DNA of 49,811 bases from a virus, in the IMG/VR virus record IMGVR_UViG_3300005326_000015; one strand, given 5' to 3'. How positions within the stretch are numbered: position 1 is the first letter of the stretch; the number at the start of each line of letters is the position of its first letter. Positions 12,001-49,147 of the stretch are shown here, piece after piece. The notes below the pieces were generated by a model. That model was given only the letters and a program-made list of their open reading frames with translations. It did no database searches and was not told where the DNA came from. Position numbers and translations under genes: made by a program.

Positions 12001-14139
12001 GCGAAGGCCGTTAACCCTGAATTTGAATATGAAGCATTGAACGACGCAGACTTTGTAACAGACTTGAACGCTAAAGTTCAAATAAATCCATTCGTTGAGA
12101 AGGTTTCCGTGAACCAGGCCACCTTATTCCAGTTCGATGACAAGACAATTCAGAAGTTAGCCGAGCGGATGAGAGCCAAAGGGATATTCACGGAGCAGCA
12201 AATTGCTGATATTACATCTCCGTTGGGTCAGAAGTGGTTAAACAAGTACATTGATGAGCACCACAAAACCGTGTTCCAAGGTACGGAAGCATATATTGAC
12301 AAGACTTTGAAGTGGTTGGATGACACTCAGGCTCAAAAGGTCTTCGAGACATCCGTCACAGCCTCTATGGCCGATTTGATTGAAACCTTGCCAAGAACAG
12401 TACGCTCAGCCAAAGTGTTTGATGCAATACTGTCTCCGTCGGTGGCTGAAATGGGAAGCCCGAACTCACCATTCCAATGGATTGAATTCGAGGATGAACT
12501 GGTCAGCGCTGTTAAAAACGAACAGGGTGAAGTCATTAAAACCATTACCAAAAAGAAGATGCCAAAAGCACCGTTGGGCTTCAAACGGATGTCCAATTCC
12601 CAGGTGCAGGAGTTTATTACAAAGATTGAGCGCTTAAACAATTTCATTCAAAGTGATGAGTTGCTGAGCGTGGCTGACTGGATGAAGAGTCAACTTGCGA
12701 AGAACGCAAAGAACCCAACAGGCCAGTTAGTGATTGAGGCCAATGTGGCGCGGGTGCTTGAGTTGGATTACAACAAAGTATCCGGAGCGTTGCTGAAATT
12801 CGTTGACTTCTCAAACAACTTATTCAAACGAAACAAACTGTTATCCCTTGCCTTCAACATCCGCAACAGCATCGGTATTACGACGAACATGTTCTTGTCG
12901 GGTATGGAGTTTACAGACATTGCGCGCAGTTTTGCAAGGGCAGACAACATCTTCAAACAAGGACCTGAATTGCTGGCCAGGGCTGCAAGAGCCGACATAA
13001 ACACGCTGAGCAAGATATTCAGTCCGGAAGAGATGAAGATATACCAGGCCTATGAAATGTTCATTAAAGGACAGTTCACGCTGCCAAGAACCATAAAGCA
13101 AGCGATTGCGGAAGGTCTCTCCGGCTCAGGGTCTGAGTTGATGGATTTGGATGGAATTAAAAAGGACATCACGAAAAATGCTAAGATGCCTGAATGGCTC
13201 CAAAAGAGCAAGGATGCCCTGGATACTGTGTCGATTGTCAATGGATGGGGAAATGAAACTGTGGATGCTTATGGTCGTATGGCTGTAATGGTGCATGCCA
13301 TGGAAAATCCTGAGTACCTGCAAAAGTTGATGGTCCAGGACCCGATTGCCGCCGTTCGCTTAGCCATGTTTGACCCAAAGAACCTGTCCTCTTATGAGAC
13401 AGAGATTGCCAAGCGGGTCATCCCATTCTATTCATTTACGAAGCAGAACTTAGTCTATCATATGCAAAACCTGCCAAACAATGCGGTCCGCTACAACAGA
13501 ATCCAAAAAGGATTGCGCAGCGCATGGAATGGTATGGGATTAAAACAAGAAGATTTGGAAGCCTACAAACTGGAGCAAATGTATATCCCGATTCCAGGGA
13601 TGTCAGCGGATGGCAAGTACTTCGCCATTAAAGCGAACCTACCACAATCCGACTTCGGCGAATTCTTAGGTAATCCAATTCAACGAGTGCTTGCATCCAC
13701 TTCCCCGCTCATTCGGGCCGGATTTGAAGTGGCAACCAACAAGCAAATATTCACCGGACAGGAAATATCCGAATTCCCTGGTCAGCGCAGCAGCACGATG
13801 CCATTCCTTGATAGGAATACAGAGTACTGGCTGAGCCAAGCAGGGTTGGATGTTCCAATGAAAGGTCTTACCGGATTATACAACGCAGCAACAGGGCAAG
13901 ATGTCCAAGGAGGTCTCATGCAAGCGTCAAACATTATCTCTCAAGGGTCCAAAGAGCAAGGTCAACTAAACCGCGCCTACCAAACTTTAGAGAGATTGCA
14001 ACAAGGTGTCCGCTACCTTAAACAAGAGGAAAAGGACTTACTCAAACTGGCTGAAATAAACAGTCCGACCCCAGCACTGGATGCAGCCCAAAACAAAATG
14101 GATGCACTTATGGCTAAACTAAAAAAAGGCCCCCGATAA
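6076..14139 (+). CDS. Giant multidomain (polyvalent-type) protein, 2,687 aa, with putative ADP-ribosyltransferase-like segment
   Basis: Uninterrupted 8.06-kb ORF. ATG at 6076 lies 6 nt after AGGAGGA (the track start 6055 is a GTG inside the previous gene). Pro-rich KAPEP linkers at 9226..9309, ~11430 and ~11935 suggest domain boundaries. The motif YHYGD..(N22)..GHFGTGTYFLGEE..(N19)..LNEVNF lies at 10444..10614. A bidirectional terminator follows. Confidence 0.9.
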   Translation: MSKIDELLNRLGQSAAKGTIDAIGQTQGAANKSPLLEVQNQVDNLAARMQGSGIDPTQFTDTRNPLEKMLNLRPDQNLLFDIFEVINRPQQALFGGIQHLQEGGDFLKGMEQGLTRTGAEEFSGGQILRNMFSGGKREDGTMDWTDWVGFGLDVFADPADLAFLPVSAVANVGQAATKLTGKASTKMDNLIKGGMAALGKTDVNTVAKVANVADDVMDVGEKTMASMAKDSYKLIREGEKFVSPTDLTMRALFGTVSFGLKGADAKLAEPLMTVLGKAEDYGNFKKVVSNFFNQTKAFSKEAVANIRLAFGEEAFAKKYMYEALKATDELLESWAGQLGVTPQRLSEMMGEYWSVTSPEQMMRASDILLKQRGAQLIPYSDEMYESLSKMVNSEQAIGDLMPVIEFEGLSYIDLRKITREMVDQSAKETSLAIPKMIKHLDVDNISKYADMPLFEQAYTDWYVQYQRMRKGLWSIQGSEFGMGTEYLRNVLTEDARHALAEVDALNHVFDLGGQTTNKTMGDPTLFAGRKYGADPITASNWIKAERTLDTMERMEKVLGARAKVSNATADAIQAAKLVEAQALEAGSKIKIDRRVRDLLDEFMEETGVTQDMLDIYTVMMENKLAKTEVGRDLIRQAKAVGLVGEDEKILDVSSHRFTVGEKSGSTLIETLDPEDYNRLVSLKASDPNFQSKVSKEVYNAIGSQPIPMKFKDGTALTKQQAKGYNKLTTWVQRLKELRAPTLTGMKSEGIMQIVDDTVWSKIDDESLKGIAYRSKVIEATDDIAEGLTSVPLKHVDLEEAAQGLAKEPDFLKKVVDNLNKATNNASSEVALGDLISRPESIIDYARREVLRQAREQYTYRQMKTGIQELLGRAATDEDMARAVALAEAGKPLHPRLFDPNFNIWQRTIDNLDGDFAKAKELGKGLKDGTYDLKTGKKLDLEGDDSYMVSFEQSSDAYTPEEYNKIIKELMDETGSEAYLGVYGQPEISFKVATEEEAMALAKRFNQESIYFNGRVLEDGTKVPADLIMNPDYNPATNQIIRDVVEEVPVTKAPEPIITPEDIKAPEPVKAPEPAAPAEKTYLDKKIELDEFETKELSSIMNINKRGTSVKPFRKKVLSKDLDDYIAKGLSDDVGEDSFFRAFNITDHKGAKGRLEGRDYEPLTKAQYADRGLEKYTPLNSNAPKLRVVDRELAQNHHEIKRVRRAMEKLDAQMGTNYANTGLLGEIYKEVDETADALAKMKPEGHQIYKTAADSRDKLVGKLQKDLKLPSKKSVDALANETLVDNAFSNSRVASELRLRAADYPVVDSFTMRSEVMEVLSEDAYAMMTGNILSKEFNDRFGTIAGRTNLNTPFSEETQTYLQRLYDEVQKVRQGSFPYAKFMQDGVLDEERAFEALNDYMKSVNGMSVPELQEEMRRAYNAIDEIKRTKYDLRQVLESEEALQNLQNTYQKTNNKAYHYGDLGIGRDTTFKNMGSSRGTGHFGTGTYFLGEEAAESTGKISSYAGRPLNEVNFDDYATFKPATEEAGFALHDGLKEINAVSDNVQSMWTGRPYTDAEGWTHYPETMQMTDREMAKIVREAMTNGKLSTDLSKVMDDALDYNQRAISAGKIDLYYANLFDSFVEEFSEKGADTLNRYSALLPANLKTVFDDLIAKTKDGVAEVSDFTGREVGDIVNIFEGMSNIHKASNKALKKFEKAGLPRMNKSVEEFVTSLIETVKKGMSGDDMAPTASTNFMKMIGYEGIDVRGLKALDNTTYGSVIYDVKKAAQEAPEAAAVKVTPDDFAAKAPEKVTETLPFDYNTNDYKGTVPARTLNAQSKKVTLATPEEFNVMESLYKRSGRRAFADDPYVFERLVAGKPGMKMKTIFEIEDTLNNINQKINEGTMSLTEKELDDLYTLMQKIDAEFGTDLSKHSILSKKKFDTYNKRLSDYNAQKLASTPKVDDSVDILDEVTGKAPEPELDINAMFKEAEPPVQTAKAVNPEFEYEALNDADFVTDLNAKVQINPFVEKVSVNQATLFQFDDKTIQKLAERMRAKGIFTEQQIADITSPLGQKWLNKYIDEHHKTVFQGTEAYIDKTLKWLDDTQAQKVFETSVTASMADLIETLPRTVRSAKVFDAILSPSVAEMGSPNSPFQWIEFEDELVSAVKNEQGEVIKTITKKKMPKAPLGFKRMSNSQVQEFITKIERLNNFIQSDELLSVADWMKSQLAKNAKNPTGQLVIEANVARVLELDYNKVSGALLKFVDFSNNLFKRNKLLSLAFNIRNSIGITTNMFLSGMEFTDIARSFARADNIFKQGPELLARAARADINTLSKIFSPEEMKIYQAYEMFIKGQFTLPRTIKQAIAEGLSGSGSELMDLDGIKKDITKNAKMPEWLQKSKDALDTVSIVNGWGNETVDAYGRMAVMVHAMENPEYLQKLMVQDPIAAVRLAMFDPKNLSSYETEIAKRVIPFYSFTKQNLVYHMQNLPNNAVRYNRIQKGLRSAWNGMGLKQEDLEAYKLEQMYIPIPGMSADGKYFAIKANLPQSDFGEFLGNPIQRVLASTSPLIRAGFEVATNKQIFTGQEISEFPGQRSSTMPFLDRNTEYWLSQAGLDVPMKGLTGLYNAATGQDVQGGLMQASNIISQGSKEQGQLNRAYQTLERLQQGVRYLKQEEKDLLKLAEINSPTPALDAAQNKMDALMAKLKKGPR
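12064..12081. repeat. TTGAAC-N6-GTTCAA palindrome (copy in giant ORF, in-frame LNAKVQ)
   Basis: ttgaacgctaaagttcaa; TTG is a codon in the ORF frame. Confidence 0.9.
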
Positions 14140-14152: not shown

Positions 14153-15043
14153 TTATGCCTTCGTTTTACGGAAGGTAGCATTGACATAAGTGGTGCCAGG
14201 TTTGCGGTACATATCCAAGTTCAAGTCAGGATTGTCTAAGGTCAACAAGGCTTCATCCAAGCCTCCTTTACGGAAGACTTCACTGATGGACATGCTGAAT
14301 CCGATGCCACTAAACTTCACATTCTCATAGCGTTCTTTGAACCATTCACTCAAGTCTTTTTCCCTGGCTTCAAGTTCCTTGATTTCCTGCTTCAGTTCAA
14401 ACAGTTCATAGGCTTTTTCTTCAGCCTCTGTGCTGAATTCGGCTTCTTTGATGACAACCCCTTGAGCGTTGTATTTTGAATTGTAAAGTTCAATAAGGTC
14501 ATAAGGGAAGTTTTTATAATCTTCAATACCATTGAGGCAAGCGAACACAAAGTCCACCATTTGCTCCATAAGCCCGATAAGTTCATCGTCGCGGCGAATT
14601 GTCGTGTAGATAGGCTTTCCCTTCCACATCCCGCAAAGCAGCGCCTGAGTGGCCCCTGTGGCCTGCATATAGGCTTGTACTTGAATCGCATAGCCTTTAC
14701 TCTGTGTGAATGGCTCTTGAGCGTTGGAGATTTTACATTCAACGACGGTCATTTCACCGTCGATAATGGCCATACCGTCGGTTTTACAGCGGATGCGTTC
14801 ATCGAAGGCATAGCGCACTTTTTCGTTGCGCTCTCCGATGCTAATTTGAAGTTTGTTCTCAAAGTAGTTGAGAGCACCTTCTTCAAGGAATGTTCCCCAG
14901 TCCATGCGGTCTTGCGCATCCTCTGTGAATTCCTGTTCGTCAATACCTAAATCGAAACGGATTTGTTCGGTTGGTGAATTGAATCCTACACCGAAGTAGG
15001 ACCCCAAACTGGATGCTGTTAGAGTGAATCTTTCTTGTTTCAT
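14153..15043 (-). CDS. YqaJ/lambda-Exo-like PD-(D/E)XK recombination exonuclease
   Basis: 296 aa. The D...ECK signature (KTDGMAIIDGEMTVVECK) and overall layout are typical of YqaJ-type viral exonucleases. An annealase gene is present elsewhere in the same block. Confidence 0.7.
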   Translation of the reverse strand: MKQERFTLTASSLGSYFGVGFNSPTEQIRFDLGIDEQEFTEDAQDRMDWGTFLEEGALNYFENKLQISIGERNEKVRYAFDERIRCKTDGMAIIDGEMTVVECKISNAQEPFTQSKGYAIQVQAYMQATGATQALLCGMWKGKPIYTTIRRDDELIGLMEQMVDFVFACLNGIEDYKNFPYDLIELYNSKYNAQGVVIKEAEFSTEAEEKAYELFELKQEIKELEAREKDLSEWFKERYENVKFSGIGFSMSISEVFRKGGLDEALLTLDNPDLNLDMYRKPGTTYVNATFRKTKA

Positions 15044-20602: not shown

Positions 20603-22690
20603 TTATATTTTCTCCTTTTCCGCCCAGTTTGTTTGGGACATTTCTATTTCACACAGCATCGGGACCCAAGGGATAGTTTTTACTAAGTCCTGCATAATGT
20701 TCTGAATTTGAACTGCAAGGTTCAATTCTGATTCATGTAGAAGGAAAACCAACTCATCGTGGATACTCATAGCGAATTTGGATAACTTTCCACGCAAGAG
20801 TTTAGCCACGGATAATTGTGCTTGTTTAACAATCTCAGCACAGGTCCCTTGAATTCGGTAGTTCGCGCCCTTATAAAAGAAGGAAGGGTCGCTGATGTAG
20901 TAACGACGACCATAAATGTTCGTTGTGTAACCTAAACGGTACAACTCTTTACTTGTGGCCTTTTGATAATTCTTAATCTTCGGGAAGGCCTTATAGTAAC
21001 CTTCGTCCAAGGATTTTGCTGTTTCCTCATCCAAGTCCAACTGTTCAATAATGGCTCCGACACCGCCTCCGTAGTTTTTCAGGAAGTTGGCCATCTTGCC
21101 CCATTTGCGGTACTTCTTAAACTTCGGATGGTCTTTGGTCAGCCACGCGAAGGCATGCAGCGTCGTTTCATCATGAACCTCTGTTGCAATCCACTCTGAG
21201 CCGTCCTCATTGACCCATTCTCCGCTGTTCCAACGCTGAATGTGCTCTAAGTTCTTCGGGTCAAAGTCTTCAAAGGTATCTACGCTCACGCATCCAAAAG
21301 GCATATAGGCGCGGCATAAATTGAAGTCAGGCTCTCCTAACAAAATAGTGTAAAAGGCCTGCACCCTCAACTCCATCTGAGAGTAGTCGAGGAAGGTCAT
21401 TGTATAGCCTTCATCCGTTATGAATGGTTTTCGTGGATGGAATAACTCTGTGGTCTCATCATCCTCATCGGCTAAAAATGGGTCCTTTGGCTGCTGCTGT
21501 AAGTCTGAACTCACGCGGCCTGTCTTCGTTCCTGAATTGTTGATAGTCGTATATAAACGGCCATCGACCATGTTTTTCAATTTACCGTCAATATAAGTAC
21601 CTATCCACTTATCGGCTGTACGAAGGCGACGGATGATTTCAGCCATTTCTTTGGCCTCATCGGAGCCTTGACTCTCACCAATTTTCTTCATGGTCTTCTT
21701 GTCTGCATTTCCTAACATCATCCCAAACTGGGTCTCATAAATCTTTTTAATGACATCATGCTGGCCGGAAGAGAATTCCTTGCCAGTGATTTCTTTCAAG
21801 CGGCCATAGAGTTTCTGCTGGAATTCAATCATCCGCTGTCTTGACTCAAGCAGGTAATCAATATCCATCCTGAACCCGACACGCTCCATGTCTGCCACGA
21901 CGCGTATAAGGTCACACTCCTGATGAAAAATCTCAAAGCCAGGGTCGGTAACTCTTAAAGTAGGCATGGCTCTTTTCAAATATTCCAGCACGATGACAAT
22001 ATCATCCGCTGCATAATTCAGCATCAGCGCTTCTTTTTCCATATAAACATCGTGGAAGTTGGCAGGGCTGTACAATTCATCTATAAACTCAAAATATTCA
22101 TCATACTCTGTTTTGACAAAAGGTACGCGTTTCTGCCAAGCATCCATCACTGGCTTGAAGTTGACTTTCGGATACATCTTTTTGAATTCATCTTTCAAGA
22201 AGTTCCGTTGCGCCTTGTTTATTAAAGTCATGTGATGCTTGATGGAATCCTGTGCTGCTTTTGAATTCTTATCTACATAAGTTGAACCCAATGATTCAAG
22301 ACTCATACCAACTTCAGAGTCCGCATATTCGGTCAGTCGAGCGACGGAAGTACTGTCTGCCAGTCTCACATCCTCCGGAATATCAAATCCAAAGTTCGTG
22401 GTCATGTGCAGGTCAAACTTCGCGTTATGGGCGAACATGTAATCACACTTCGCGGCCATTGCAAACATTGAACTCAATAGTTCAAAAGTAGGCTCAAACA
22501 GGTAAACATACTTATCGAAGCCGAAGGCATAGAGAAACGGACGCGCCACCATGTGATGCAGTCCGTTCGTTTCTGTGTCATAGGCCATGATGGAAGGCAT
22601 GGTTTTGGCGAAGGTCTCATTCGCTTCCTCCATGTCTTTCATGGTCCTGATAACCTTCATTTGGTATTTGAACTTTTGATGTAAAAACAT
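20603..22690 (-). CDS. Family A DNA polymerase with 3'-5' exonuclease domain
   Basis: Exo I YDTETNGL; Pol motif A FLDYSQMELRV; motif B RKWGKMANFLKNYGGG; motif C SIHDELVF. Confidence 0.9.
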   Translation of the reverse strand: MFLHQKFKYQMKVIRTMKDMEEANETFAKTMPSIMAYDTETNGLHHMVARPFLYAFGFDKYVYLFEPTFELLSSMFAMAAKCDYMFAHNAKFDLHMTTNFGFDIPEDVRLADSTSVARLTEYADSEVGMSLESLGSTYVDKNSKAAQDSIKHHMTLINKAQRNFLKDEFKKMYPKVNFKPVMDAWQKRVPFVKTEYDEYFEFIDELYSPANFHDVYMEKEALMLNYAADDIVIVLEYLKRAMPTLRVTDPGFEIFHQECDLIRVVADMERVGFRMDIDYLLESRQRMIEFQQKLYGRLKEITGKEFSSGQHDVIKKIYETQFGMMLGNADKKTMKKIGESQGSDEAKEMAEIIRRLRTADKWIGTYIDGKLKNMVDGRLYTTINNSGTKTGRVSSDLQQQPKDPFLADEDDETTELFHPRKPFITDEGYTMTFLDYSQMELRVQAFYTILLGEPDFNLCRAYMPFGCVSVDTFEDFDPKNLEHIQRWNSGEWVNEDGSEWIATEVHDETTLHAFAWLTKDHPKFKKYRKWGKMANFLKNYGGGVGAIIEQLDLDEETAKSLDEGYYKAFPKIKNYQKATSKELYRLGYTTNIYGRRYYISDPSFFYKGANYRIQGTCAEIVKQAQLSVAKLLRGKLSKFAMSIHDELVFLLHESELNLAVQIQNIMQDLVKTIPWVPMLCEIEMSQTNWAEKEKI
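20708..20725. repeat. TTGAAC-N6-GTTCAA palindrome (in polymerase gene, in-frame LNLAVQ on minus strand)
   Basis: ttgaactgcaaggttcaa. Confidence 0.9.
22468..22485. repeat. TTGAAC-N6-GTTCAA palindrome (in polymerase gene, other frame)
   Basis: ttgaactcaatagttcaa plus the following aag gives 21 nt identical to the reverse complement of the copy at 32104..32121. Confidence 0.9.
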
Positions 22691-27161: not shown

Positions 27162-28040
27162 CTATATCCGATTTTTCAGGCCTGCATGGAATTTGTCAAT
27201 GTCAGGCAATTTTCTTAACTTGTCGCGAAGTACATCGTCGCTGTCCTTGTCAGGCTGGACGGCAAACTTGTAAGTGCGCAGGAAGGCGGGATTGAAGATA
27301 CGCAAAGCGCCCGATAATTTGTCAGGGTCTGCACAGTTCCGAATCAACTGGATGACAGCCTCAACCGTATCGGTTGGCTCAGCCTCCACATGCTCCACTT
27401 CCATTTCTTGAACTTCAGAGTTCAAAGATTCAGGGAGAGGGTCAGAAGCAGCAGCAACATCGACAACTTTATTTGCAGCCTCATTGACCACTTTGATAGC
27501 ATCTACTGTGCGTTGGGTCGCGGTCTTCTTTGCTGTGTTAGGTGCTGGCGGTGTCTCAGGTTTCACATCTTCTTCAAACTGAAGGTCTTTGCCTTCATAC
27601 AATTTCAGGCCAAGGCCAGTCGCGCGAGCCACTAAGCGGGCCTTAGCGCGTTGAAGGGCCTTATTGACCATGTTTTGGTCGAAGTACTTCGGAGCCTCAT
27701 ACTTTTCATTTTGAATCGGGTAAGTCTCCACAAAAGTGCGGCCCATAAAGGTGATTTTCAATTTCACGAAGTTCGCAATGTGTTGAGATATAATCGTATC
27801 TCCTTTGTTAACCGTCGTGATGGTCTCAGCCTGTACATGGACAAAACCGCCCTTTTCATTTTCTACAATTTCAATAACACATTCAGGGTCCTGCATTATG
27901 GCCAATCGTTCCATTGTGGCCCAAGGCAAGTAAGGGTCGTTCTTAAAGTTTTTCTTGATAAACTCTTCGATTGACTTTGATTCAACGGACTTTCCGTTGT
28001 AATTGTCAGTGTAAACCGACAACCAAGTTTTGTTTTCCAT
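27162..28040 (-). CDS. Rad52-like (Sak/Erf-type) single-strand annealing protein
   Basis: The start at 28040 (MENKTWLSVY) follows AAGGAGGAAAA. NKALQRAKARLVARATGLGLKLYEG is the hallmark C-terminal helix/GLGL-LY motif of Rad52-type phage annealases. Acidic tail. Confidence 0.6.
   Translation of the reverse strand: MENKTWLSVYTDNYNGKSVESKSIEEFIKKNFKNDPYLPWATMERLAIMQDPECVIEIVENEKGGFVHVQAETITTVNKGDTIISQHIANFVKLKITFMGRTFVETYPIQNEKYEAPKYFDQNMVNKALQRAKARLVARATGLGLKLYEGKDLQFEEDVKPETPPAPNTAKKTATQRTVDAIKVVNEAANKVVDVAAASDPLPESLNSEVQEMEVEHVEAEPTDTVEAVIQLIRNCADPDKLSGALRIFNPAFLRTYKFAVQPDKDSDDVLRDKLRKLPDIDKFHAGLKNRI
27408..27425. repeat. TTGAAC-N6-GTTCAA palindrome (in annealase gene, in-frame LNSEVQ on minus strand)
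   Basis: ttgaacttcagagttcaa; shares AGAGTTCAAAGATT with the copy at 49103. Confidence 0.9.
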
Positions 28041-28917: not shown

Positions 28918-29468
28918 TTTCCTCCTGTCGGTGTAAATGTACCGAACTTTCCTTCCCTGTTCATTCTTGCCAATTCAACTTCGATGTCCTTTTGAACTTC
29001 ATCTTTCAAAAACTGGATGTAGGTCTTATACATATAGTAGCCTTTTTCCAAGTACTCTTTATGATAGTCCATCATAAAATTTGATATCCATGCGCAAGGT
29101 ATCTCCAAATAAATTCCGCTGTTCAAATACAAGTGCGGCCATAAACTGTTATTCACAACCGATGGTCTGCTCTCTAAAAAAGCACCATCATTTTGTACAA
29201 ACCACTGGTCCGCATACTTGTTCTTAATCTGCTGGATGACAACGAATGGGCTAAAACCAGGTCCGCCAATGTAACCCAAGCAGCCATCCTTCAGCCAAAC
29301 TTCTCTCAGGCCAAAGAAGCCATCCTTCAGTACTGACAGTATAAACAACTCCAAGACAAAAACCAAGTCCAAAACATGCGAGCCGTCACGCGCATAGTTA
29401 TTACGCGCAAAACCATCGTCGGTCATCTCAAACACTGGTGTCTCCCCATACAAATTAAAATTTTCCAT
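28914..29468 (-). CDS. Hypothetical protein
   Basis: The start at 29468 (MENFNLYGE) follows GGAAGGAGAAAAAG. Confidence 0.55.
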   Translation of the reverse strand: MENFNLYGETPVFEMTDDGFARNNYARDGSHVLDLVFVLELFILSVLKDGFFGLREVWLKDGCLGYIGGPGFSPFVVIQQIKNKYADQWFVQNDGAFLESRPSVVNNSLWPHLYLNSGIYLEIPCAWISNFMMDYHKEYLEKGYYMYKTYIQFLKDEVQKDIEVELARMNREGKFGTFTPTGGK

Positions 29469-29586: not shown

Positions 29587-29822
29587 CGTAAACTTGACTC
29601 CGAGGGATGGAGTTCCCATCCCTTGAACATTTTCTTAAAGACAATGATGTCTTTCAAAGCCAGTGCATAACACTCAAATACATGAAGAAGTTCGGTCCGT
29701 TTTACAAGGATGACATCCGCGTCCTTTTCGTTTGAAAGGCTCTTGATATTTTCTTCAATGATGGCCAAAGTCTCTTCTAACTTTTTTTGAACTTCATCGT
29801 TCAATTCTTCAGTCGTTCCCAT
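29583..29822 (-). CDS. Hypothetical protein
   Basis: 79 aa with RBS AAGGAGGAAC. Confidence 0.55.
   Translation of the reverse strand: MGTTEELNDEVQKKLEETLAIIEENIKSLSNEKDADVILVKRTELLHVFECYALALKDIIVFKKMFKGWELHPSESSLR
29787..29804. repeat. TTGAAC-N6-GTTCAA palindrome (in-frame LNDEVQ on minus strand)
   Basis: ttgaacttcatcgttcaa; a 17/18 near-copy lies at 28992..29009. Confidence 0.9.
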
Positions 29823-30639: not shown

Positions 30640-30649
30640 AGTGCCCTCC

Positions 30650-31447
30650 TTAATAGGACTCCGCAAGTTCGCGGGTTAAGAAAAAGTGAATACCGCTGGC
30701 ACATTCCTCCCAACGGTTGTCTTCAAAATCATATTTAGGTCTTACAGTCTTGCCAACTTCATAAGCAAAGCGGTCACAGTGCATGGACCATCCTTTATCC
30801 ACACTTACATAATCAGTGTACGGCAAAGCATCCATTGCTGGTTGTAAAATCTCCAGCACAAGCGCCTCCGAGGCCCTGCATTTCAAGGTCGTTGACATAC
30901 TCCGCTGAGCATGCGCAGGTATCAGCAATTTACACAAATAGCCGTCTTCCAATTTCTTCCAAACAATCAGGTCTCCCTCAGGGATGACATTGACAAAACC
31001 GACAGTCTCTTCGTTGATGCCAAAAGGTGTCAAAAATAGACAATCCATAAACCTTGCGTTCGTTCCGACGGCTCCTCCGACATATACATTGTCAAAAGTG
31101 CATCTGTAAAAACGGACTCCGCGAAAATCTGAACCTGTAAACTGAAGGTCTTTGAAAAAGCAATCCACAAAGGTCGCTCCCTTAAAACAGCCCTGCTCAA
31201 AAAACCAGTTTTGCTCAAAATAACACTTCTCAAAATGAGACTCAGGCAAATAATTTGCGTATCCCAAAGGCTCTTCCACGATGCGGGTGTTTTCCAGTTG
31301 GAAACGAAGGCCCTCAGAGTCATTGCGCTTAGGCACAAAGAGGTGATAATGTGCCTCAATCATTGCATCCATTTTTTCCTTCGCGATTTCTGTTAAGACG
31401 GTTTTGGTAAGGTCAGCGCCTTGTGATGTGTTTGATGTGTTAAACAT
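30650..31447 (-). CDS. Pentapeptide-repeat protein with C-terminal globular domain
   Basis: CFKGA TFVDC FFKDL QFTGS DFRGV RFYRC TFDNV has Phe/Leu at every fifth residue over about 9 repeats. The C-terminal domain ends ...CASGIHFFLTRELAESY. Confidence 0.75.
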   Translation of the reverse strand: MFNTSNTSQGADLTKTVLTEIAKEKMDAMIEAHYHLFVPKRNDSEGLRFQLENTRIVEEPLGYANYLPESHFEKCYFEQNWFFEQGCFKGATFVDCFFKDLQFTGSDFRGVRFYRCTFDNVYVGGAVGTNARFMDCLFLTPFGINEETVGFVNVIPEGDLIVWKKLEDGYLCKLLIPAHAQRSMSTTLKCRASEALVLEILQPAMDALPYTDYVSVDKGWSMHCDRFAYEVGKTVRPKYDFEDNRWEECASGIHFFLTRELAESY

Positions 31448-31448
31448 G

Positions 31449-31766
31449 TCAGTCCTCCTTTTGAACTTTTGAGTTCAATAATGGTGATTCATCCAAATAC
31501 TTGAGAATGACGGCTTTGGCCTCATCGCGGTCCTGCGTCATTCGTACTTCCTTCAAAAACTTTTCTCTTTGGTCTGCCTTGATGTAATGGCATAATTGAC
31601 GCGCTGCATCATTGATGGCCTCACAATACCAATAGGCCTCCCATGGTCGATTGACATAATGTGATTTTCCGTGCGCCAGCAGGCCCCATTTCCCTGTGTC
31701 AAAAACTTTAACATGCAAAGTGTTTTTGGCTTTTGTGCGCGTGCTTGTGAATTCAAAGGTAATCAT
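31449..31766 (-). CDS. Hypothetical protein
   Basis: 105 aa. The N-terminus MITFEFTSTRTK resembles the N-terminus of the 34318..34566 product (TAFEFTSTTTT). Confidence 0.55.
   Translation of the reverse strand: MITFEFTSTRTKAKNTLHVKVFDTGKWGLLAHGKSHYVNRPWEAYWYCEAINDAARQLCHYIKADQREKFLKEVRMTQDRDEAKAVILKYLDESPLLNSKVQKED
31461..31478. repeat. TTGAAC-N6-GTTCAA palindrome abutting the SD of the 30650..31447 gene
   Basis: Minus strand reads TTGAACtcaaaaGTTCAAAAGGAGGactgacATG. It also encodes LNSKVQ at the end of the upstream gene. Confidence 0.9.
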
Positions 31767-32092
31767 ACATTCACCAACTTCACATTCTCGTAGCCTTTGA
31801 CAGCATTTACGGCCCTTTGGAGTCGGGCCGTCTGCATGGATTTTATAACATGCTCCAGTCCATTGCTCAAATTGATGAGGTCTTCTTCGGTCATATCAAT
31901 AGCAACGCGGGCATCGGTTTTCGAGATGCGTACATAAGCATAGTCTCCGCCAACCACAGGACTCATATGACTCACAATCAAAACATTGAATAGGTCAACT
32001 CCCACTTTGATTTCTGCTAAACCGTCTTCGTTGGTAACTGTCAAGATATGGTCATACCTTGACATTTCGTTGGTTGATTTTTTGGTTTCCAT
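31763..32092 (-). CDS. Hypothetical protein
   Basis: 109 aa; RBS AAGGAGAAA follows directly after a palindrome copy. Confidence 0.55.
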   Translation of the reverse strand: METKKSTNEMSRYDHILTVTNEDGLAEIKVGVDLFNVLIVSHMSPVVGGDYAYVRISKTDARVAIDMTEEDLINLSNGLEHVIKSMQTARLQRAVNAVKGYENVKLVNV

Positions 32093-32103
32093 AGTTTCTC
32101 CTT

Positions 32104-32121
32104 TTGAACTATTGAGTTCAA
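32104..32121. repeat. TTGAAC-N6-GTTCAA palindrome abutting the SD of the 31763..32092 gene
   Basis: Minus strand reads aatTTGAACtcaataGTTCAAAAGGAGaaactATG. The TGA inside the left arm is the stop codon of the upstream gene. Confidence 0.9.
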
Positions 32122-32888
32122 ATTCTCCTTATCGGTTTCAAAGTCATGTATCTTCGTTGAACAGCGACGGAGGTCACAACACATTCGATGCGGTTGAAAA
32201 CATACGCGTCGGTCAGCGGCTGGTACTCCTTGATTCCTAATACAACTTTATCCTGAGGATTCAGCATCTGTGCAGGGTCATAAAGCACATAAGTTCCTTC
32301 CCGCGTTTCCCTGATGGATTCATAGCCGTTCGGAGCAATGTGATGATGCAGCGCAAACTCCCCAAAAACATTTTCATCCAGTAAATAAGGCAGCAGGGAT
32401 TTCGTGTAATTGTAGCGCTGATTCCTGCTCCATGGCCCATGAAAATAGGCCTCCTGAATTTCATCCTGCTTGTCAGGATGTCTCAGTTCCCTGAAGGTCA
32501 CATAATTCGTACCGTCGTGATGACTCAAGGCGGCCTTGATGTCATAGCGGTCATAGTAAAAACCGCTGTATTCCTCCATAACACGGAAGATGGCGGCCAG
32601 TGATGTGCCCGCAGGCCAAAACTTAATGGCTTTTACGCGGCCATGCCATAAGCCTGCATCCACTAAAGCAACGATGCCATTCGGGATAATGATACCTGAA
32701 AATTCTGCTTTGAGGTCTTCCAACTGGTAGGCCAGCGAATCGTCGATGTACTGAAAAAACGCGGTGTCACTTCGAGACGGCTCAGCATCAGGGTTTCCCT
32801 CCATCTCATTCTCAACATAGGCCGTAAACCAGTCATCCTCATTGATGTCGGAGAATAAATTACTCCATAGTGTTTTTGTGTTTTTCAT
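32118..32888 (-). CDS. Hypothetical protein
   Basis: The start at 32888 (MKNTKTLW) follows GGGGAGA with an ATGA overlap; 256 aa. Confidence 0.6.
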   Translation of the reverse strand: MKNTKTLWSNLFSDINEDDWFTAYVENEMEGNPDAEPSRSDTAFFQYIDDSLAYQLEDLKAEFSGIIIPNGIVALVDAGLWHGRVKAIKFWPAGTSLAAIFRVMEEYSGFYYDRYDIKAALSHHDGTNYVTFRELRHPDKQDEIQEAYFHGPWSRNQRYNYTKSLLPYLLDENVFGEFALHHHIAPNGYESIRETREGTYVLYDPAQMLNPQDKVVLGIKEYQPLTDAYVFNRIECVVTSVAVQRRYMTLKPIRRI

Positions 32889-33097
32889 TTCCATTCTCCC
32901 CATCGTTCGGAGACTTGCTCTTCGGTCAGCGCTCCGTAGGTATAACCCCTGTCGTTGCTGAAAATCACAGGCGCGTTTTCATCCATGTCTTCCAAAATTT
33001 CGATAAGTTCCTTGACGGTCAAGGTCGAGTCGATGTAAATTTGAGACGGCTCATAAGCGGTCCGCTCCGTCGATAGTTGAACAAATTTGCGTTTCAT
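32885..33097 (-). CDS. Hypothetical protein
   Basis: 70 aa with RBS AGGAGGAGC. Confidence 0.55.
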   Translation of the reverse strand: MKRKFVQLSTERTAYEPSQIYIDSTLTVKELIEILEDMDENAPVIFSNDRGYTYGALTEEQVSERWGEWK

Positions 33098-33111
33098 GGT
33101 TGTGCTCCTCC

Positions 33112-33579
33112 TTACAGGATATGGTCCGTCGGGATATGAAAGTTTTCCCCGCGGACGGCTGCTGCTAAATTCGAGATGTAAATGATTTCATCCATGGTCG
33201 GGATGGTCGAGATGATTTTATTGTCATAGTCGGTCAACTGTGCATAGTAGGTGTTAGCCATCAGTGTTCTGAAGGTCTTCGCAGGGTCCACATAGTTTTT
33301 AGCATAGTCGATGTAATAAAACGCGTCGCTGTATGCCTTCCGAATTTGCTTGTAAAGAGTGACTTCATCATCCACTAATTTCAAGGTGGCCAAAACCCCT
33401 TGATAGCCTTGTTCTTCGGCCTTGATTAAAACGACATGCGCAATCAATAACGCGGAGTCTTGCTCCAGCAGCATATTGCGGTCCTTGATAACTTCTGCTA
33501 AACTCTTCAGGTCATCTGTAATCTGAATGATGGGTCTCATACAATAAGTGTATGGTCGTAGTGTTGTTGTTGTGTTCAT
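33112..33579 (-). CDS. Hypothetical protein
   Basis: 155 aa; RBS AAGGAGC follows directly after a palindrome copy. Confidence 0.6.
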   Translation of the reverse strand: MNTTTTLRPYTYCMRPIIQITDDLKSLAEVIKDRNMLLEQDSALLIAHVVLIKAEEQGYQGVLATLKLVDDEVTLYKQIRKAYSDAFYYIDYAKNYVDPAKTFRTLMANTYYAQLTDYDNKIISTIPTMDEIIYISNLAAAVRGENFHIPTDHIL

Positions 33580-33592
33580 TTTTGTGCTCCTT

Positions 33593-33610
33593 TTGAACTC
33601 AATGGTTCAA
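33593..33610. repeat. TTGAAC-N6-GTTCAA palindrome abutting the SD of the 33112..33579 gene
   Basis: Minus strand reads TTGAACcattgaGTTCAAAAGGAGcacaaaaATG. The 18-mer is identical to the copy at 34641. Confidence 0.9.
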
Positions 33611-33640
33611 TTTTGTTATGTCTCCGTTTTGGAGAAAATA

Positions 33641-33663
33641 GAGCGGATTTTTGAGGTCCGCTC
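33641..33663 (-). terminator. Possible intra-operon terminator/attenuator
   Basis: Minus strand reads GAGCGGA-N9-TCCGCTC followed by TATTTTCT, about 11 nt after the SprT-like gene stop. A second small hairpin (TCTCC-N5-GGAGA) follows. Confidence 0.4.
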
Positions 33664-33673
33664 CGTCAGTTAG

Positions 33674-34318
33674 TTATTTTACTTCTTCCTTATCCATTTC
33701 TTCTTCACAGTCTGTGCAAGTCAAGTTAGCATTGACAGCGGCTTTGAATGTGATTCCGCAGGTCGGGCAGGTATATTGATATTGCTCCTTCTTTTTGGCT
33801 TTGGCTTTCATTCCGCTGATTTCTTTTCGAGCGATGGCCATAGGATGGTCCAGTTCCTCAAACATGGCCTGTAATCGTACCAGTAGCGCGTCGGATAATT
33901 TCGTGTGCGCCCATCCATATTTCTTTGATTCTTCCACTTCCAGTCCGACGGCCTCAGCGCCTGCTTTAAAGCGCTTGTTGTGATATGTGCCTTTGCGGCT
34001 GCAATCCTGAATTTTCTCCATGATGTTTTTGAGATGCACCATCTCATGAATCAAAGTTTGCAAGGTGTCGGATAGCGGACGGTCCGTAAACTCCGCGCTC
34101 AAGTTGATTTCATAGGCTCCGCCTTCTTCGTCGCGCCATAACTCCGCTGTGCTGCACCAGCCATAGGCCTGATGCTTGCCGCGTGTTTGTATCGTAACTA
34201 AAACGCGTGCTCCTTCATTTACATTCTTCTGAAAATACGATTCAAAAATTTCGCGGTCAATCTTATAAAAAGCATCATTCAATGTGCGGACAGCCTTCGC
34301 GTAGTTTTCGGATAACAT
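33674..34318 (-). CDS. SprT-like zinc metallopeptidase with C-terminal zinc ribbon
   Basis: HExxH in TLIHEMVHLKN with a downstream GTYHNKRF. C-terminal CPTCG...CTDC ribbon. Confidence 0.7.
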   Translation of the reverse strand: MLSENYAKAVRTLNDAFYKIDREIFESYFQKNVNEGARVLVTIQTRGKHQAYGWCSTAELWRDEEGGAYEINLSAEFTDRPLSDTLQTLIHEMVHLKNIMEKIQDCSRKGTYHNKRFKAGAEAVGLEVEESKKYGWAHTKLSDALLVRLQAMFEELDHPMAIARKEISGMKAKAKKKEQYQYTCPTCGITFKAAVNANLTCTDCEEEMDKEEVK

Positions 34319-34566
34319 TATTTTTCTCCCTTCGTGGCGCGGATAGCAGCGCCTAACAATTTATAAACTTCTTCAGCCTGCTCAATGCTCATGTAAGTGC
34401 TAAAATTCTCATGAACTCCAAAAACTGATTCACCTGTAATCTGAATATACAGGCCTTCAACAAACGGTCCTGAGAACTTAAATGTCTCAGTGCAAAAATC
34501 GGTGGTCGTGGTAGATGTGAATTCAAATGCGGTCTTCGTTTTCTCTTTAATGATAGCCATTATCAT
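34318..34566 (-). CDS. Hypothetical protein
   Basis: 82 aa (start may be the second ATG at 34560) with RBS AAGGAGAAA. TAATG overlap with the downstream gene. Confidence 0.55.
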   Translation of the reverse strand: MIMAIIKEKTKTAFEFTSTTTTDFCTETFKFSGPFVEGLYIQITGESVFGVHENFSTYMSIEQAEEVYKLLGAAIRATKGEK

Positions 34567-34640
34567 TTTCTCCTTCTGCTGTCATCAGCATACTGTTAAG
34601 CATCAGGATGCCTGATGCTCAATGTGTAAAGTGATGACTT

Positions 34641-34658
34641 TTGAACTCAATGGTTCAA
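34641..34658. repeat. TTGAAC-N6-GTTCAA palindrome in the 34567..34662 intergenic gap
   Basis: ttgaactcaatggttcaa. On the minus strand it is followed by an 8-bp stem / 3-nt loop hairpin (GCATCAGG-cat-CCTGATGC, 34600..34618) and then the SD. Confidence 0.9.
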
Positions 34659-34662
34659 TAAT

Positions 34663-35187
34663 CTATTCAGGAAAATTCAATTCAAATTCAGGTCCGTCTT
34701 TGGGTTGCGATTCCATAGACTCATCGAAGGCCTCATCCGTACCGCCTACTGTCAGGCAGCAGGATTGACTCCAGTCATAGATGGCCTGCTGACAAAACAC
34801 GCGGCCCATCGTAAGCGCGGTGTTTGCATCTTTAATCCGTACACTGTGCTCAATGTACATATGGCCGTCTTCAACCCATATTCCGATATAGCGCGGTAAC
34901 TCACCATAGCGCTCACCGACAGTGTTAACAGCAGCAACTTCAATGGCGGCTGTCATGAAAGCATCCAGCAATTTTAAAGTGCTTGCTTGGTCGTTCTGCA
35001 ATGCAATGGCCTCACCAGTATTCGGTAAACTAATCTGAAAGCCATCCATGAAAGTCACTTCTTTAACCGCAATATCTCCGTTGCTCATTTTCTTGACTTC
35101 AATGGTTGCTCCGCCATTGACCATCGCATTGTGCAGCATGTTTGCGGCCATCAGTGATTCGATAATAAATTGTTTTTGAGTTCTCAT
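34663..35187 (-). CDS. Hypothetical protein (first gene of leftward early operon)
   Basis: 174 aa with RBS GGAGAAAT. The motif YIGIWVEDGHMYIEHSV..D...A...G....QQAIYDW recalls a widespread phage/plasmid family of unknown function. Confidence 0.6.
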   Translation of the reverse strand: MRTQKQFIIESLMAANMLHNAMVNGGATIEVKKMSNGDIAVKEVTFMDGFQISLPNTGEAIALQNDQASTLKLLDAFMTAAIEVAAVNTVGERYGELPRYIGIWVEDGHMYIEHSVRIKDANTALTMGRVFCQQAIYDWSQSCCLTVGGTDEAFDESMESQPKDGPEFELNFPE

Positions 35188-35536: not shown

Positions 35537-35565
35537 ACATTACAGCATCGCTGATAAGGTGTCAA
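35537..35565 (-). promoter_or_regulatory. Candidate early leftward promoter (copy 1 of a duplicated element)
   Basis: Minus strand reads TTGACA-N12-TGCTGTAATGT. The same 23 fixed positions recur at 36342..36370. Confidence 0.45.
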
Positions 35566-35624
35566 CAAAATTTTAACATTTTCTTAAAATATTTTTTTTT
35601 GGAGGCCAAAATAGGCTTTTTGAT

Positions 35625-35898: not shown

Positions 35899-35901
35899 AT
35901 G

Positions 35902-36300: not shown

Positions 36301-36341
36301 GCGCGCCGCCTGCTGTGAGGCCGTCCGCGTCTTATACCACC

Positions 36342-36370
36342 ACATTACAGCAGGCCCTGAAATATGTCAA
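36342..36370 (-). promoter_or_regulatory. Candidate promoter of the moron gene (copy 2 of the duplicated element)
   Basis: Minus strand reads TTGACA-N12-TGCTGTAATGT, followed by GGTAT-AG-ACGG as in copy 1. Confidence 0.45.
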
Positions 36371-46981: not shown

Positions 46982-49147
46982 ATGAAAATTAAACTAGCGC
47001 CAGGGAGTGGAGGAGAGTATCAACAAGATGCTGCCTCCAACACCCGCCGCAGAGAAATCAGAGCCAAACGCATTACGGACGGTTCCCTTGAGGAAGCGTT
47101 CTTTCTGCTTCAACCGGACAACATCACACAATCCGTGTTTAGCACTCCTGCTTGGGACAGTTTTGCCAGCAGCAAAGAAAACACCGTAGTTCGCAGCGCC
47201 ACAGAGCCTGTGACAAAAACGATGAATATGTTGTGGATGGACACTTCGGCTGTGCCTAACATTTTGAAAAGATGGGATGGCAGCCAATGGGTGTTAACTT
47301 CGTTTGACCAGGCAAGTATTGAAGCAACGGCGAATTCTATTGCGTCAACGGTTGTATCTACTGTACAAATCGGTGGTGAAAACTTTGTAAAAAACGCAAG
47401 TTTTGGAAACGGTGTTATAAATTGGTCAGGTTCAGGAACACTCATTGACACGGCTGTCGGTTTGTCCGATACAAACAGTTGCAAATTATTAGGTTCAGTC
47501 GCGGCAGTGTATCTTTTACAAGATGTTTACCCTGTCCCTTTACCTGGAAAAAATATTGATTTAGTGACCTCTGCTTATGTGAAAAGTGTAAGTGTCGTTC
47601 GGGGTGCAACAAATCCATTGATTTGCCTTCGTGTTCAGTACCATTACACGGACGCAACTTTTGTTGATTATTTTTCTGAAGAAGTCATGAACGGAACAGA
47701 AGATTGGAAGAGATTGCAAATCGTGCAAAAGACTGACCAAACAAAGACTATATCCAAACTCCGTATATTCTTGTACGCAAGGGACTTTGCAGGTACTCTC
47801 TATTACGACGATGTACAAGTGGAATATGGAAATAAAGCAACTTCATTCGGTCTTTCAATGACTGAATACTCTCAAATTTTGCAGACTGCTAATGAGATAG
47901 TTCTTGCTGTCGGTACTGTCAAAGGTGGCCAGGACTCAATTATTCCTTACACACAACAGACCTGGGTTCAAGGAGGCATTGACGGAACAGGTATAAATAT
48001 TGCAGCCACAGGAAGACTGCGCTTGATTGACTATGTGACTGTGGAACCTTTGACGGATTATGTATTCAAAAAGAGCAGCAACTGTGAAACGGCGGTTTAT
48101 TGGTACAACTCCTCGAATGTTATTGTAGGAGTTAACGGCTGGATAACTCAAAATGAATTTAAGATAAATTCTCCTGCAACAGCAGTTAAAATGAGAATTT
48201 CGTTCCGTAAGAGTGCAGCAGAGCCTGTTATTACGGTTGCCGAGATGCCTAACTACCAAATAACCGGAAGCAGAGCCACACGCTTTTTATCCGGTGCACG
48301 ATACATCTTTGATGACACAAGTTTTAGAATTAGGAATGTCGCTGGAACTGATGTTTTGACGGCAGACACAGATGGAAACTTACTTGTCACTAACTTAATG
48401 CGCGTAGGTGCCACACCAAACGCAGGTTTAAACGGTGCAGGTACAGGTGGAACGACCATAAGAATGTGGGCCGGAGCAGCAACTCCTGTAACCAGCGCGG
48501 ACTTCTATGTACGCGATGATGGTTATATGAAAGCATCCAGTGGTCTAATTGGTGGATGGTCTATTTCTTCCACGGCCTTGGCTAAAGGAAATTTAAGTTT
48601 GAGTGCTTCCGGAACTAACGGAACCATCTCGATGGGTGGAGCAACCTTAACCTCTAATGCTTCAGATACAATTACCTTGACAGGTGCTCTGCTATTTGCA
48701 GGTAGTCCTGGGGCCTCTAACGGTGGATTTAATGCAGGAACTAATATTACAACAGCCACAACGCGCTTGAATTACAGTGGTTACTTATACGCGGTTGGTT
48801 TAAGATATGGAGCAGGCGGAAACAGTTCATACTCAGATGTCCGAATGAAAGAAGATATTGAAACCTTAGGCATGTTCAAGGCCACAGACTTCATTATGGC
48901 TTTGTCTCCAAAACAGTTTAAATTCATTGACAGGGCCGAAGACAAATTGACCTATGGATTGGTGGCTCAGGAAGTTGAAGCCGCCATTAAAAAAGTCGGT
49001 TTACCTCCGCTGTCTCTGCTTCGTGTACCTTACGAAGATGATGAATACTATGGGTTGGATTACTCTCAATTCATTGCTCCGTTGATTGCAGCAGTACAAT
49101 TATTGAACGCAAGAGTTCAAAGATTAGAAGGAGGATTTGCATGGTAA
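46982..49147 (+). CDS. Tail fibre/spike with carbohydrate-binding module and C-terminal S74-type intramolecular chaperone
   Basis: The N-terminal LWMDTS..PNILKRWDGSQWV motif is common in Gram-positive phage tail proteins. A CBM-like segment runs GENFVKNASFGNG..W ... YYDDVQVEYGN. The C-terminal SDVRMKEDIETLG ... YGLVAQEVEAAI is the auto-cleaving chaperone signature. Confidence 0.8.
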   Translation: MKIKLAPGSGGEYQQDAASNTRRREIRAKRITDGSLEEAFFLLQPDNITQSVFSTPAWDSFASSKENTVVRSATEPVTKTMNMLWMDTSAVPNILKRWDGSQWVLTSFDQASIEATANSIASTVVSTVQIGGENFVKNASFGNGVINWSGSGTLIDTAVGLSDTNSCKLLGSVAAVYLLQDVYPVPLPGKNIDLVTSAYVKSVSVVRGATNPLICLRVQYHYTDATFVDYFSEEVMNGTEDWKRLQIVQKTDQTKTISKLRIFLYARDFAGTLYYDDVQVEYGNKATSFGLSMTEYSQILQTANEIVLAVGTVKGGQDSIIPYTQQTWVQGGIDGTGINIAATGRLRLIDYVTVEPLTDYVFKKSSNCETAVYWYNSSNVIVGVNGWITQNEFKINSPATAVKMRISFRKSAAEPVITVAEMPNYQITGSRATRFLSGARYIFDDTSFRIRNVAGTDVLTADTDGNLLVTNLMRVGATPNAGLNGAGTGGTTIRMWAGAATPVTSADFYVRDDGYMKASSGLIGGWSISSTALAKGNLSLSASGTNGTISMGGATLTSNASDTITLTGALLFAGSPGASNGGFNAGTNITTATTRLNYSGYLYAVGLRYGAGGNSSYSDVRMKEDIETLGMFKATDFIMALSPKQFKFIDRAEDKLTYGLVAQEVEAAIKKVGLPPLSLLRVPYEDDEYYGLDYSQFIAPLIAAVQLLNARVQRLEGGFAW
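49103..49120. repeat. TTGAAC-N6-GTTCAA palindrome (in tail-fibre gene, in-frame LNARVQ)
   Basis: ttgaacgcaagagttcaa. Confidence 0.9.

Follow-up and report, generated by a model that had tools for sequence, protein, structure and literature searches.

A dispersed TTGAAC-N6-GTTCAA palindrome in a podovirus-like phage genome: a possible DNA site for a dimeric protein

Introduction

Cluster O mycobacteriophages carry 17-bp dyad repeats (TGTTCGG-N3-CCGAACA), for which the authors predicted a dimeric DNA-binding protein (PMC4351075), and phages of Microbacterium Cluster EG carry an 18-bp inverted repeat, GATCAACC-NN-GGTTGATC, in 8-10 copies per genome (PMC7302621). An experimentally resolved precedent is provided by the SPBRE of SPbeta, which are bound by MrpR (PMC10516654). 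Here we describe a palindrome, TTGAAC-N6-GTTCAA, that is dispersed over the IMG/VR virus record IMGVR_UViG_3300005326_000015, a nearly complete phage genome; the window referred to below is this whole stretch of 49,811 nt. We posit, with a probability of roughly 0.45 and thus somewhat short of even odds, that the palindrome may be the recognition site of a two-fold-symmetric, sequence-specific DNA-binding protein that would act along transcription units and not at promoters.

Dispersed sites of the stoperator and SPBRE type also include the conserved inverted repeats (CIRs) of phage phiC31. The parS, Noc-binding and matS sites, in turn, are few, near-perfect palindromes of 13-16 bp that function as loading or binding sites and often lie in coding sequence, where they are kept by codon-level selection. 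An earlier note on the DNA studied here had reported four copies of the palindrome in the leftward early operon and described them as fused to the Shine-Dalgarno (SD) sites of early genes, offering an RNA hairpin, an operator for a dimeric regulator and a module-boundary sequence as possible readings.

Copy number and geometry of the palindrome

The window contains 10 exact copies of TTGAAC-N6-GTTCAA, starting at positions 12064, 20708, 22468, 27408, 29787, 31461, 32104, 33593, 34641 and 49103, where 0.01 would be expected from shuffled sequences and 0.01-0.04 from Markov models of order 1-5. Copies with one mismatch (n = 5; 8254, 10165, 14476, 22282 and 28992) are likewise in excess of the 0.26-0.52 expected, and the seven copies with two mismatches are at background level. 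When the whole window was scanned for palindromes with arms of 5-7 bp and gaps of 0-14, this was the sole multi-copy palindrome with 6-bp arms, others being repeated a few times at most. Its spacing is rigid: all ten TTGAAC/GTTCAA pairs within 30 nt of each other are separated by 12 nt, start to start. Because the spacing is exclusively N6, the centres of the half-sites lie about one helical turn apart.

The 6-bp arms are identical in all ten exact copies, among which eight different spacers occur, and a pyrimidine usually comes next to the half-site TTGAAC on its 3' side. Of the five copies with one mismatch, four disrupt the pairing of the arms instead of preserving it. In two pairs of copies the shared sequence reaches beyond the 18-mer, with identity over 21-22 nt: copies 33593 and 34641 match each other in this way, as do copies 32104 and 22468, which are identical over 21 nt and lie in opposite orientation.

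An exact search recovered all four copies known from the early operon (31461, 32104, 33593 and 34641) and confirmed that copies 33593 and 34641 are the same 18-mer. Their location in that operon stands, but the motif is genome-wide, with six further exact and five one-mismatch copies. The repeat is thus real and stronger than the earlier note had stated, but it was framed too narrowly there.

Selection on nucleotide sequence within open reading frames

Eleven of the 15 copies lie inside open reading frames (ORFs), and about seven are situated deep in genes, more than 100 nt from any start codon. Where the palindrome is read in frame it encodes the peptide LNxxVQ, which occurs six times in the proteome against an expectation of 0.17. 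All six occurrences are spelled TTG AAC nnn nnn GTT CAA, for which 0.005 would be expected given the codon usage. This spelling proves directly that the DNA or RNA sequence itself has been under selection. Judged from codon choice, selection within the ORFs acts at the nucleotide level, and an explanation at the peptide level is excluded.

The genes that carry such sites are diverse. The copy at 27408..27425 lies inside the gene of a Sak-type single-strand annealing protein (SSAP; 27162-28040), where it encodes LNSEVQ in a variable linker, and the copy at 12064..12081 encodes LNAKVQ in a 2687-aa ORF of the virion module (6076-14139). In this giant ORF two one-mismatch copies are also found in frame 0, TTGACC-N6-GTTCAA at 8254..8271 and TTGTAC-N6-GTTCAA at 10165..10182, so that the three copies are spaced by about 1.9 kb. 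The copy at 29787..29804, just past the stop codon of ORF 29809-30666, occupies codons 7-12 (LNDEVQ) of a 79-aa ORF (29583-29822). The copy at 49103..49120 encodes LNARVQ at the 3' end of the tail-fibre-like ORF 46982-49147, upstream of a gene start on the plus strand. The copy at 31461..31478 forms the 3' end of ORF 31449-31766, encoding its C-terminal LNSKVQ, and is hence not intergenic.

Two exact copies and one variant are found within the PolA gene. The copy at 22468..22485 lies in the N-terminal part of the gene in the other open frame (ELLSS), and neither it nor the copy at 20708..20725 shows an indel relative to homologues; both align ungapped to variable stretches of homologous polymerases. 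The variant at 22282..22299 reads TTGAAT-CATTGG-GTTCAA in the sense direction. The ungapped alignments in PolA, together with the uniform LNxxVQ codons, show that the sites arose in place by substitution and not by insertion. A mobile palindromic element of the REP/MITE type was rejected, as the PolA copies show no indel and the in-frame copies encode ordinary residues. The two remaining variants are at 14476..14493 in the YqaJ-like exonuclease gene (14153-15043), with the mismatch at the innermost arm position, and at 28992..29009 in ORF 28914-29468, where TTGAAA-GATGAA-GTTCAA is followed by AAGGAC, 74 nt before the next start codon.

Placement relative to genes and promoters

Across the genome, 11 of the 15 copies are located in the 21-kb leftward operon of early and replication genes, most densely over its first 8 kb, and four in the rightward late genes. 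A start codon follows 11-20 nt after the end of four exact copies: 31461, 32104 and 33593 (minus strand) and 49103 (plus strand). As had been noted before, the minus strand of the first three reads GTTCAAAAGGAG, followed by ATG. Copy 31461 (minus sense TTGAAC-TCAAAA-GTTCAA, then AAGGAGG) lies 13 nt before the ATG of gene 30650-31447. Copy 32104..32121 (TTGAAC-TCAATA-GTTCAA, then AAGGAG) lies 11 nt before the ATG of gene 31763-32092, and the TGA in its left arm does serve as the stop codon of ORF 32118-32903. The non-coding copy 33593..33610 (TTGAAC-CATTGA-GTTCAA, then AAGGAG) is preceded by a terminator-like hairpin (33623-33647) and lies 13 nt before the ATG of gene 33112-33579. Copy 49103 is situated 20 nt before the ATG of gene 49141-49422, 5' of the SD of that gene, GAAGGAGG. 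The other non-coding copy, 34641..34658, begins 4 nt past the stop codon of ORF 34663-35187 and is separated by 74 nt from the ATG at 34566.

The arrangement described earlier holds, except that 5-7 nt, and not 6-8 nt, separate GGAG from the ATG. Fusion to SD sites applies to three or four copies, which are a minority of the 15, and the fourth SD-proximal copy is 49103.

No copy was found in the control region 35190-36600, nor at any of the six extended -10 promoters described below. The leftward operon that holds 11 of the 15 copies is headed by a sigma-A-type promoter on the minus strand, TTGACA-N17-TAATGT at 35537..35565, with no copy nearby. A second promoter of the same type (36342..36370, minus strand) drives the first early ORF (35902-36300), with a terminator at 35881-35896 closing it off. 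These two, both early and both TTGACA-N17-TAATGT, are the only obvious leftward promoters. A role of TTGAAC as a -35 element was rejected, as no -10 element lies at the proper distance. The palindrome was also rejected as an intrinsic terminator: two of its six stem pairs are G-C, its folding energy is about -4 to -6 kcal/mol, it is followed by A residues on the sense strand, and no copy was called in a terminator scan.

Comparison with relatives

A megablast search against GenBank phages gave no match to the window. The nearest PolA of a cultured phage is that of Paenibacillus phage API480 (37% identity), in which neither the palindrome nor an analogue was found. For the primase-helicase, metagenomes hold hundreds of homologues with 55-60% identity, and we compared the early and replication regions (about 22 kb) of five metagenomic contigs and of six contigs from metagenome-assembled genomes (MAGs) of rumen and gut Clostridia or Bacilli. 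These 11 relatives, with primases 48-60% identical, contained neither the motif nor a comparable dispersed palindrome. None of the 16 early ORFs (28217-36300) has a homologue in the relatives or in GenBank phages, and the phage proteins are singletons at 90% identity. In IMG/VR, a search with the motif plus SD pattern gave one match at chance level and a primase search no relative; in JGI metagenomes the same pattern gave 46 loci with a single copy each, which is again chance level. The full genome of a close relative was not found in the database searches, these two among them, and the only other contig with the early region (L055) is 100% identical to the window. As far as these sequences reach, the palindrome is specific to the phage's own lineage.

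The sole usable close comparison is a 640-bp ENA contig (L056), found via a 42%-identical homologue of the 79-aa ORF. At this one junction the copy at 29787 is retained as TTGAAC-GATAAG-GTTCAA, with 12 of 12 arm and 4 of 6 spacer positions identical. Identity is 88% up to and through the palindrome; over the following 20 nt it is 65% and over the remainder of the 79-aa gene 48%, before it returns to 87% at the next gene. This pattern, a single case, fits constraint on the arms plus one mosaic breakpoint about 10-20 nt 3' of copy 29787.

A different kind of repeat was seen in one of the more distant relatives (L003), which carries three copies of TGTATA-N3-TATACA (292-306, 360-374 and 784-798) at the start of its early region. 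From its clustering this looks like a conventional operator array, unlike the dispersed motif described here.

Genome context

The rightward structural block comprises a terminase (38316-39938), a portal-like gene (40076-41962), a capsid gene (42948-43994), the tail fibre with an S74 chaperone domain (46982-49147) and an M23 peptidase, and the giant ORF (6076-14139) is also encoded on the plus strand. The leftward block runs from 35187 to 14153 and begins with 16 ORFan early genes, after which come the Sak-type SSAP, DUF669, a DnaG-MCM primase-helicase, PolA, an SNF2 helicase, a glycosyltransferase and the YqaJ exonuclease. Pfam and PHROGs scans of about 60 ORFs detected no RNA polymerase, repressor, integrase or ParB.

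Extended -10 promoters (TGNTATAAT) were found six times on the plus strand, at 3062, 4891, 36568, 37826, 37906 and 44387, about 20-35 nt 5' of late or structural SDs, and none was found on the minus strand. As it lacks such minus-strand promoters, the leftward block of 21 kb may form one operon. The two early promoters (35537-35565 and 36342-36370) share the unusual form TTGACA-N17-(GCTG)TAATGT. The first early ORF, the single one driven by its promoter, encodes a basic protein of 132 aa and runs up to a strong terminator. The leader of about 350 nt (35188-35535) that follows promoter 35537-35565 gives no match in Rfam, and its folding z-score of -0.8 is unremarkable.

Between the early promoters, an AT-rich non-coding region (35600-35860) contains at least four CTATCAAAA/TTTTGATAG repeats, together with an imperfect inverted repeat of 49 nt. 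Its location at the cumulative GC-skew minimum suggests that the region may serve as a replication origin or as an operator cluster. Further downstream, a long, strong RNA hairpin is predicted on the minus strand at 34575-34640 (GUCAUCAC...GAGCAUCAGGCAUCCUGAUGCUU...GCUGAUGAC), in the interval from copy 34641 to the SD of gene 34318-34566, with a folding energy of -36.9 kcal/mol (z = -5.5) for the 116-nt region. As no U-tract follows, this hairpin may be a processing or attenuation element. The early ORFans 34318-34566 (82 aa) and 31449-31766 (105 aa), both on the minus strand, have an N-terminal FEFTST motif in common and may be paralogues; the latter is the ORF whose 3' end holds copy 31461.

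For the giant ORF, neither Pfam nor PHROGs nor the PDB gave a match. Conservation in relatives (L003, L004, L052 and L053; 38-42% identity) is limited to roughly the C-terminal 600 aa, and the length of the ORF there varies between about 1200 and 4031 aa. A virion RNA polymerase using hairpin promoters was rejected, given the sigma-A type of the early promoters and the lack of any family or PDB match for the giant ORF.

Also in the leftward block, the 92-aa ORF 20034-20312 on the minus strand matches the Acb2/Tad1 hairpin domain (Pfam E = 6e-18) and is probably an anti-CBASS or anti-Thoeris nucleotide sponge. A minus-strand cluster at 15301-17935 includes a GT4 glycosyltransferase (15301-16290), the N-terminal domain of a MazZ-like dATP/dGTP diphosphohydrolase (17143-17508) and a phosphoheptose-isomerase-like ORF (17498-17995), with DUF3310 (20258-20602) nearby; PurZ was not seen. 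This gene cluster may be linked to nucleotide or DNA modification.

Discussion

The properties of the palindrome suggest that it may be read as double-stranded DNA. Its arms are fixed and its spacer is variable, the hairpin it could form is weak, and many copies lie deep in translated ORFs. The candidate binder would be an unrecognised early ORFan of the phage or a host factor. Bound as a dimer, it might act on elongating or replicating complexes or nucleate a nucleoprotein structure, and it could do so as a roadblock or temporal silencer, similar to stoperators and CIRs, or from a loading site similar to parS. Contact with SDs would then be a consequence of tight gene packing, with sites placed in the few non-coding bases and the A-rich end of the palindrome merging with the AAAGGAG leader, and the remaining sites would have been carved into coding sequence through substitution. 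We infer all three elements of this proposal, namely the protein ligand, its reading of double-stranded DNA and the effect of binding. The operator shape suggested earlier gives the best fit in terms of invariant arms, rigid N6, free spacer, absence of covariation and origin by substitution in ORFs, but a classical operator it is not, with no copy in 35190-36600.

Several observations weigh against a dimer-bound DNA site. No phage ORF covered by the domain scans matched a helix-turn-helix (HTH), ribbon-helix-helix (RHH) or ParB family, and the same scans returned no DNA- or RNA-binding domain. The mismatch spectrum is nearly all-or-none, whereas ordinary transcription-factor regulons degenerate more gradually. 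Of the ten exact copies, four stop 11-20 nt short of a start codon, three of them in the shared GTTCAAAAGGAG register, and two of these four, 31461 and 49103, sit there despite their coding position. Such placement near start codons is more specific than would be predicted if sites had merely settled where non-coding DNA was available. Moreover, hairpins unrelated to the palindrome are also enriched 5' of SDs, which indicates constraint at the RNA level in these positions.

Searches for a binder did not single out a candidate. Homologue searches with two ORFans returned the query itself only, and the structure model of the first early ORF was unusable (pLDDT, the predicted local distance difference test, 36). 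A literature search for TTGAAC/GTTCAA binding sites gave nothing relevant. The Gram-positive LexA (Cheo) box has the consensus GAAC-N4-GTTC, and it was rejected because the window holds no GAAC/GTTC pair at N4 spacing, against 11 at N6. The 79-aa ORF was rejected as a CtsR-like binder, its CtsR_N match being weak (E = 0.021) and AlphaFold2 predicting a simple two-helix hairpin. The CtsR operator itself was also rejected, as it is a tandem direct repeat, (A/G)GTCAAA-NAN-(A/G)GTCAAA (PMC12634643), and not an inverted repeat with the half-site GTTCAA.

The next most plausible explanation, a serious though somewhat less likely alternative, is that the palindrome acts in mRNA, as a hairpin directly 5' of the SD with a stem of 6-7 bp and a loop of 4-6 nt. 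It would then be a cis-acting element of long polycistronic mRNAs, either the operator for a translational regulator that binds hairpins or a processing and 5'-stabiliser signal. In the RNase Y/RNase J logic of Bacillota, an endonuclease cut provides the cistron that follows with a hairpin protecting its 5' end. The four copies placed 11-20 nt before start codons, three of them in register, are what such a signal would look like, and all copies lie in transcribed DNA and none in promoter DNA. At all sites the hairpin forms part of the minimum-free-energy (MFE) fold, in which the SD stays unpaired, and the sense flanks are A-rich, with A at 3'+1 in 12 of the 15 copies. The wider genome points in the same direction: small hairpins of unrelated sequence are enriched about twofold just 5' of SDs (26 of 59 genes versus 11.8 of 55 control windows), the mean MFE z-score upstream of SDs is -0.46 versus -0.14, and relatives show a weaker enrichment of hairpins 26-40 nt upstream.

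The sequence pattern of the copies, however, is difficult to reconcile with a hairpin. A fixed stem with a free loop is the reverse of how most RNA-binding proteins read hairpins, although a sequence-specific trans factor would account for the invariant arms. Covariation is not significant, with one compensated variant (42615; P = 0.16), and most variants with one mismatch disrupt the stem. The fold is weak, with about -4 to -6 kcal/mol, local z-scores are mostly not significant, and Rfam 15 gives no match anywhere in the window at the gathering threshold. The SD hairpin of the earlier note consequently remains viable for the three or four copies that adjoin an SD, but leaves about seven deep intragenic copies unaccounted for; these lie in translated ORFs more than 100 nt from start codons, where ribosomes would unwind a hairpin of -5 kcal/mol.

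Sense-strand polarity, in the form of A at spacer position 12 in all ten exact copies, was rejected as evidence for RNA, as it is confounded by codon position. In frame-0 coding copies, position 12 falls on a free third codon position, and position 7, to which it corresponds by symmetry, falls on a constrained first one. Among the six copies free of frame constraint, positions 7 and 12 are Y/R in every case and thus symmetric. The polarity is not evidence for RNA because codon position explains the asymmetry.

A more specific, and in our view unlikely, form of RNA-level action is that the palindrome is the RNA (or otherwise strand-specific) target of a phage protein that binds or cleaves hairpins according to the sequence of their stem. 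Such a protein would cut the 21-kb early polycistron into units and gate translation at the SD-fused copies, acting as "translational stoperators", and the intragenic copies would tune mRNA decay. If true, this would be a post-transcriptional counterpart of stoperator control, which is not known to have been described for phages.

We consider it improbable that the palindromes are module-boundary or recombination sequences, serving at gene junctions as micro-homology or as targets for the exchange of early-gene cassettes. The drop in identity to contig L056 beside copy 29787 and its recovery at the next gene would agree with such a role, and the copies in the early operon divide groups of one to three ORFan genes that lack homologues in the relatives. 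The extended identity of 21-22 nt within the pairs 33593/34641 and 32104/22468 can be read in the same way. However, this is one comparable junction only, and the variable spacers leave 6+6 identical bases, which is too short for homologous recombination. Many copies reside in conserved backbone genes (PolA, SSAP, YqaJ and the giant ORF) with no indel or mosaic edge, domain scans revealed no site-specific recombinase, and the analogous repeats of Cluster O were not involved in rearrangements between genomes (PMC4351075). What survives of the module-boundary option is one breakpoint about 20 nt 3' of copy 29787, against ungapped PolA copies and no inserted cassette.

Least probable, and by a very low estimate, is a single-stranded-DNA hairpin signal, on the lagging-strand template or extruded, that is read by the DnaG-MCM primase-helicase as a priming signal similar to ssi or G4 origins or by another hairpin-recognising enzyme: a replication start at the AT-rich iterons at about 35.7 kb (the GC-skew minimum) would make the sense strand of both blocks the template of the lagging strand, and copies in the early operon and the giant ORF are 0.6-1.9 kb apart, but stretches of 5-15 kb (14.5-20.7, 22.5-27.4 and 34.7-49.1 kb) are free of copies, relatives with an orthologous primase (55-60% identical) lack the motif, and a 6-bp stem is very weak as DNA.

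Comparison with known systems

The stoperators of Cluster A (PMC4351075, PMC3203893) and the SPBRE/MrpR system share with the palindrome the principle of many dispersed, conserved sites along transcription units, there for one phage protein and with effects that go beyond classical promoter repression; they are the model for the mechanism that we propose. The stoperator, CIR and SPBRE systems belong to temperate phages with known immunity repressors, whereas none was detected here; stoperators are in addition asymmetric and oriented with transcription, unlike the perfect palindrome of this phage, and SPBREs are located in promoter regions. The parS, Noc-binding and matS sites are unrelated in sequence, and no ParB, Noc or MatP-like protein was detected in the phage. 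The start-associated sequences (SAS) and their extended form (ESAS) of Clusters K and EF (PMC3203893, PMC7302621) are similar in that they lie just upstream of non-structural start codons and overlap or abut the ribosome-binding site. SAS, however, is a 13-mer without dyad symmetry; it includes the SD itself, keeps to one orientation and is almost always 3-7 bp from the start, whereas the palindrome excludes GGAG and most of its copies are away from start codons.

The repeats of Cluster EG are closer. They are 18-bp palindromes located 14-22 bp upstream of leftward non-structural start codons, and four copies here are placed in this manner. Nearly all EG repeats are intergenic and start-associated, in contrast to the mostly intra-ORF copies of this phage, and arm, spacer and sequence differ.

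The most extensive agreement is found with Cluster O. In both cases invariant inverted arms enclose a variable centre, very few copies have one mismatch, and the copies are dispersed but denser in the non-structural leftward operon. Sites are intergenic, near 5' ends and in mid-gene, with no association with promoters, and the phages look lytic, with no integrase or repressor and a repeat of unexplained function. The differences lie in the geometry (7-3-7 versus 6-6-6 here) and sequence, in the number of copies (34 in a 70-kb genome versus 10-15 in 50 kb), in the host (Actinobacteria versus probably Bacillota) and in conservation, the repeats being kept in all five members of Cluster O but absent here from relatives at 48-60% protein identity.

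By this analogy, the palindrome belongs with the dispersed dyad repeats of the Cluster O and EG type, in a very different phage lineage. The function of those repeats has been unexplained for a decade, and the same pattern is now seen in an unrelated, podovirus-like phage, with relatives from gut and rumen bins of Bacillota type, which suggests a recurrent regulatory or architectural strategy and not the quirk of a single lineage. The roughly 15 sites provide a tractable set for deciding between DNA (roadblock or loading) and RNA (SD hairpin), and a binder, if found, would give a compact and highly specific protein-site pair.

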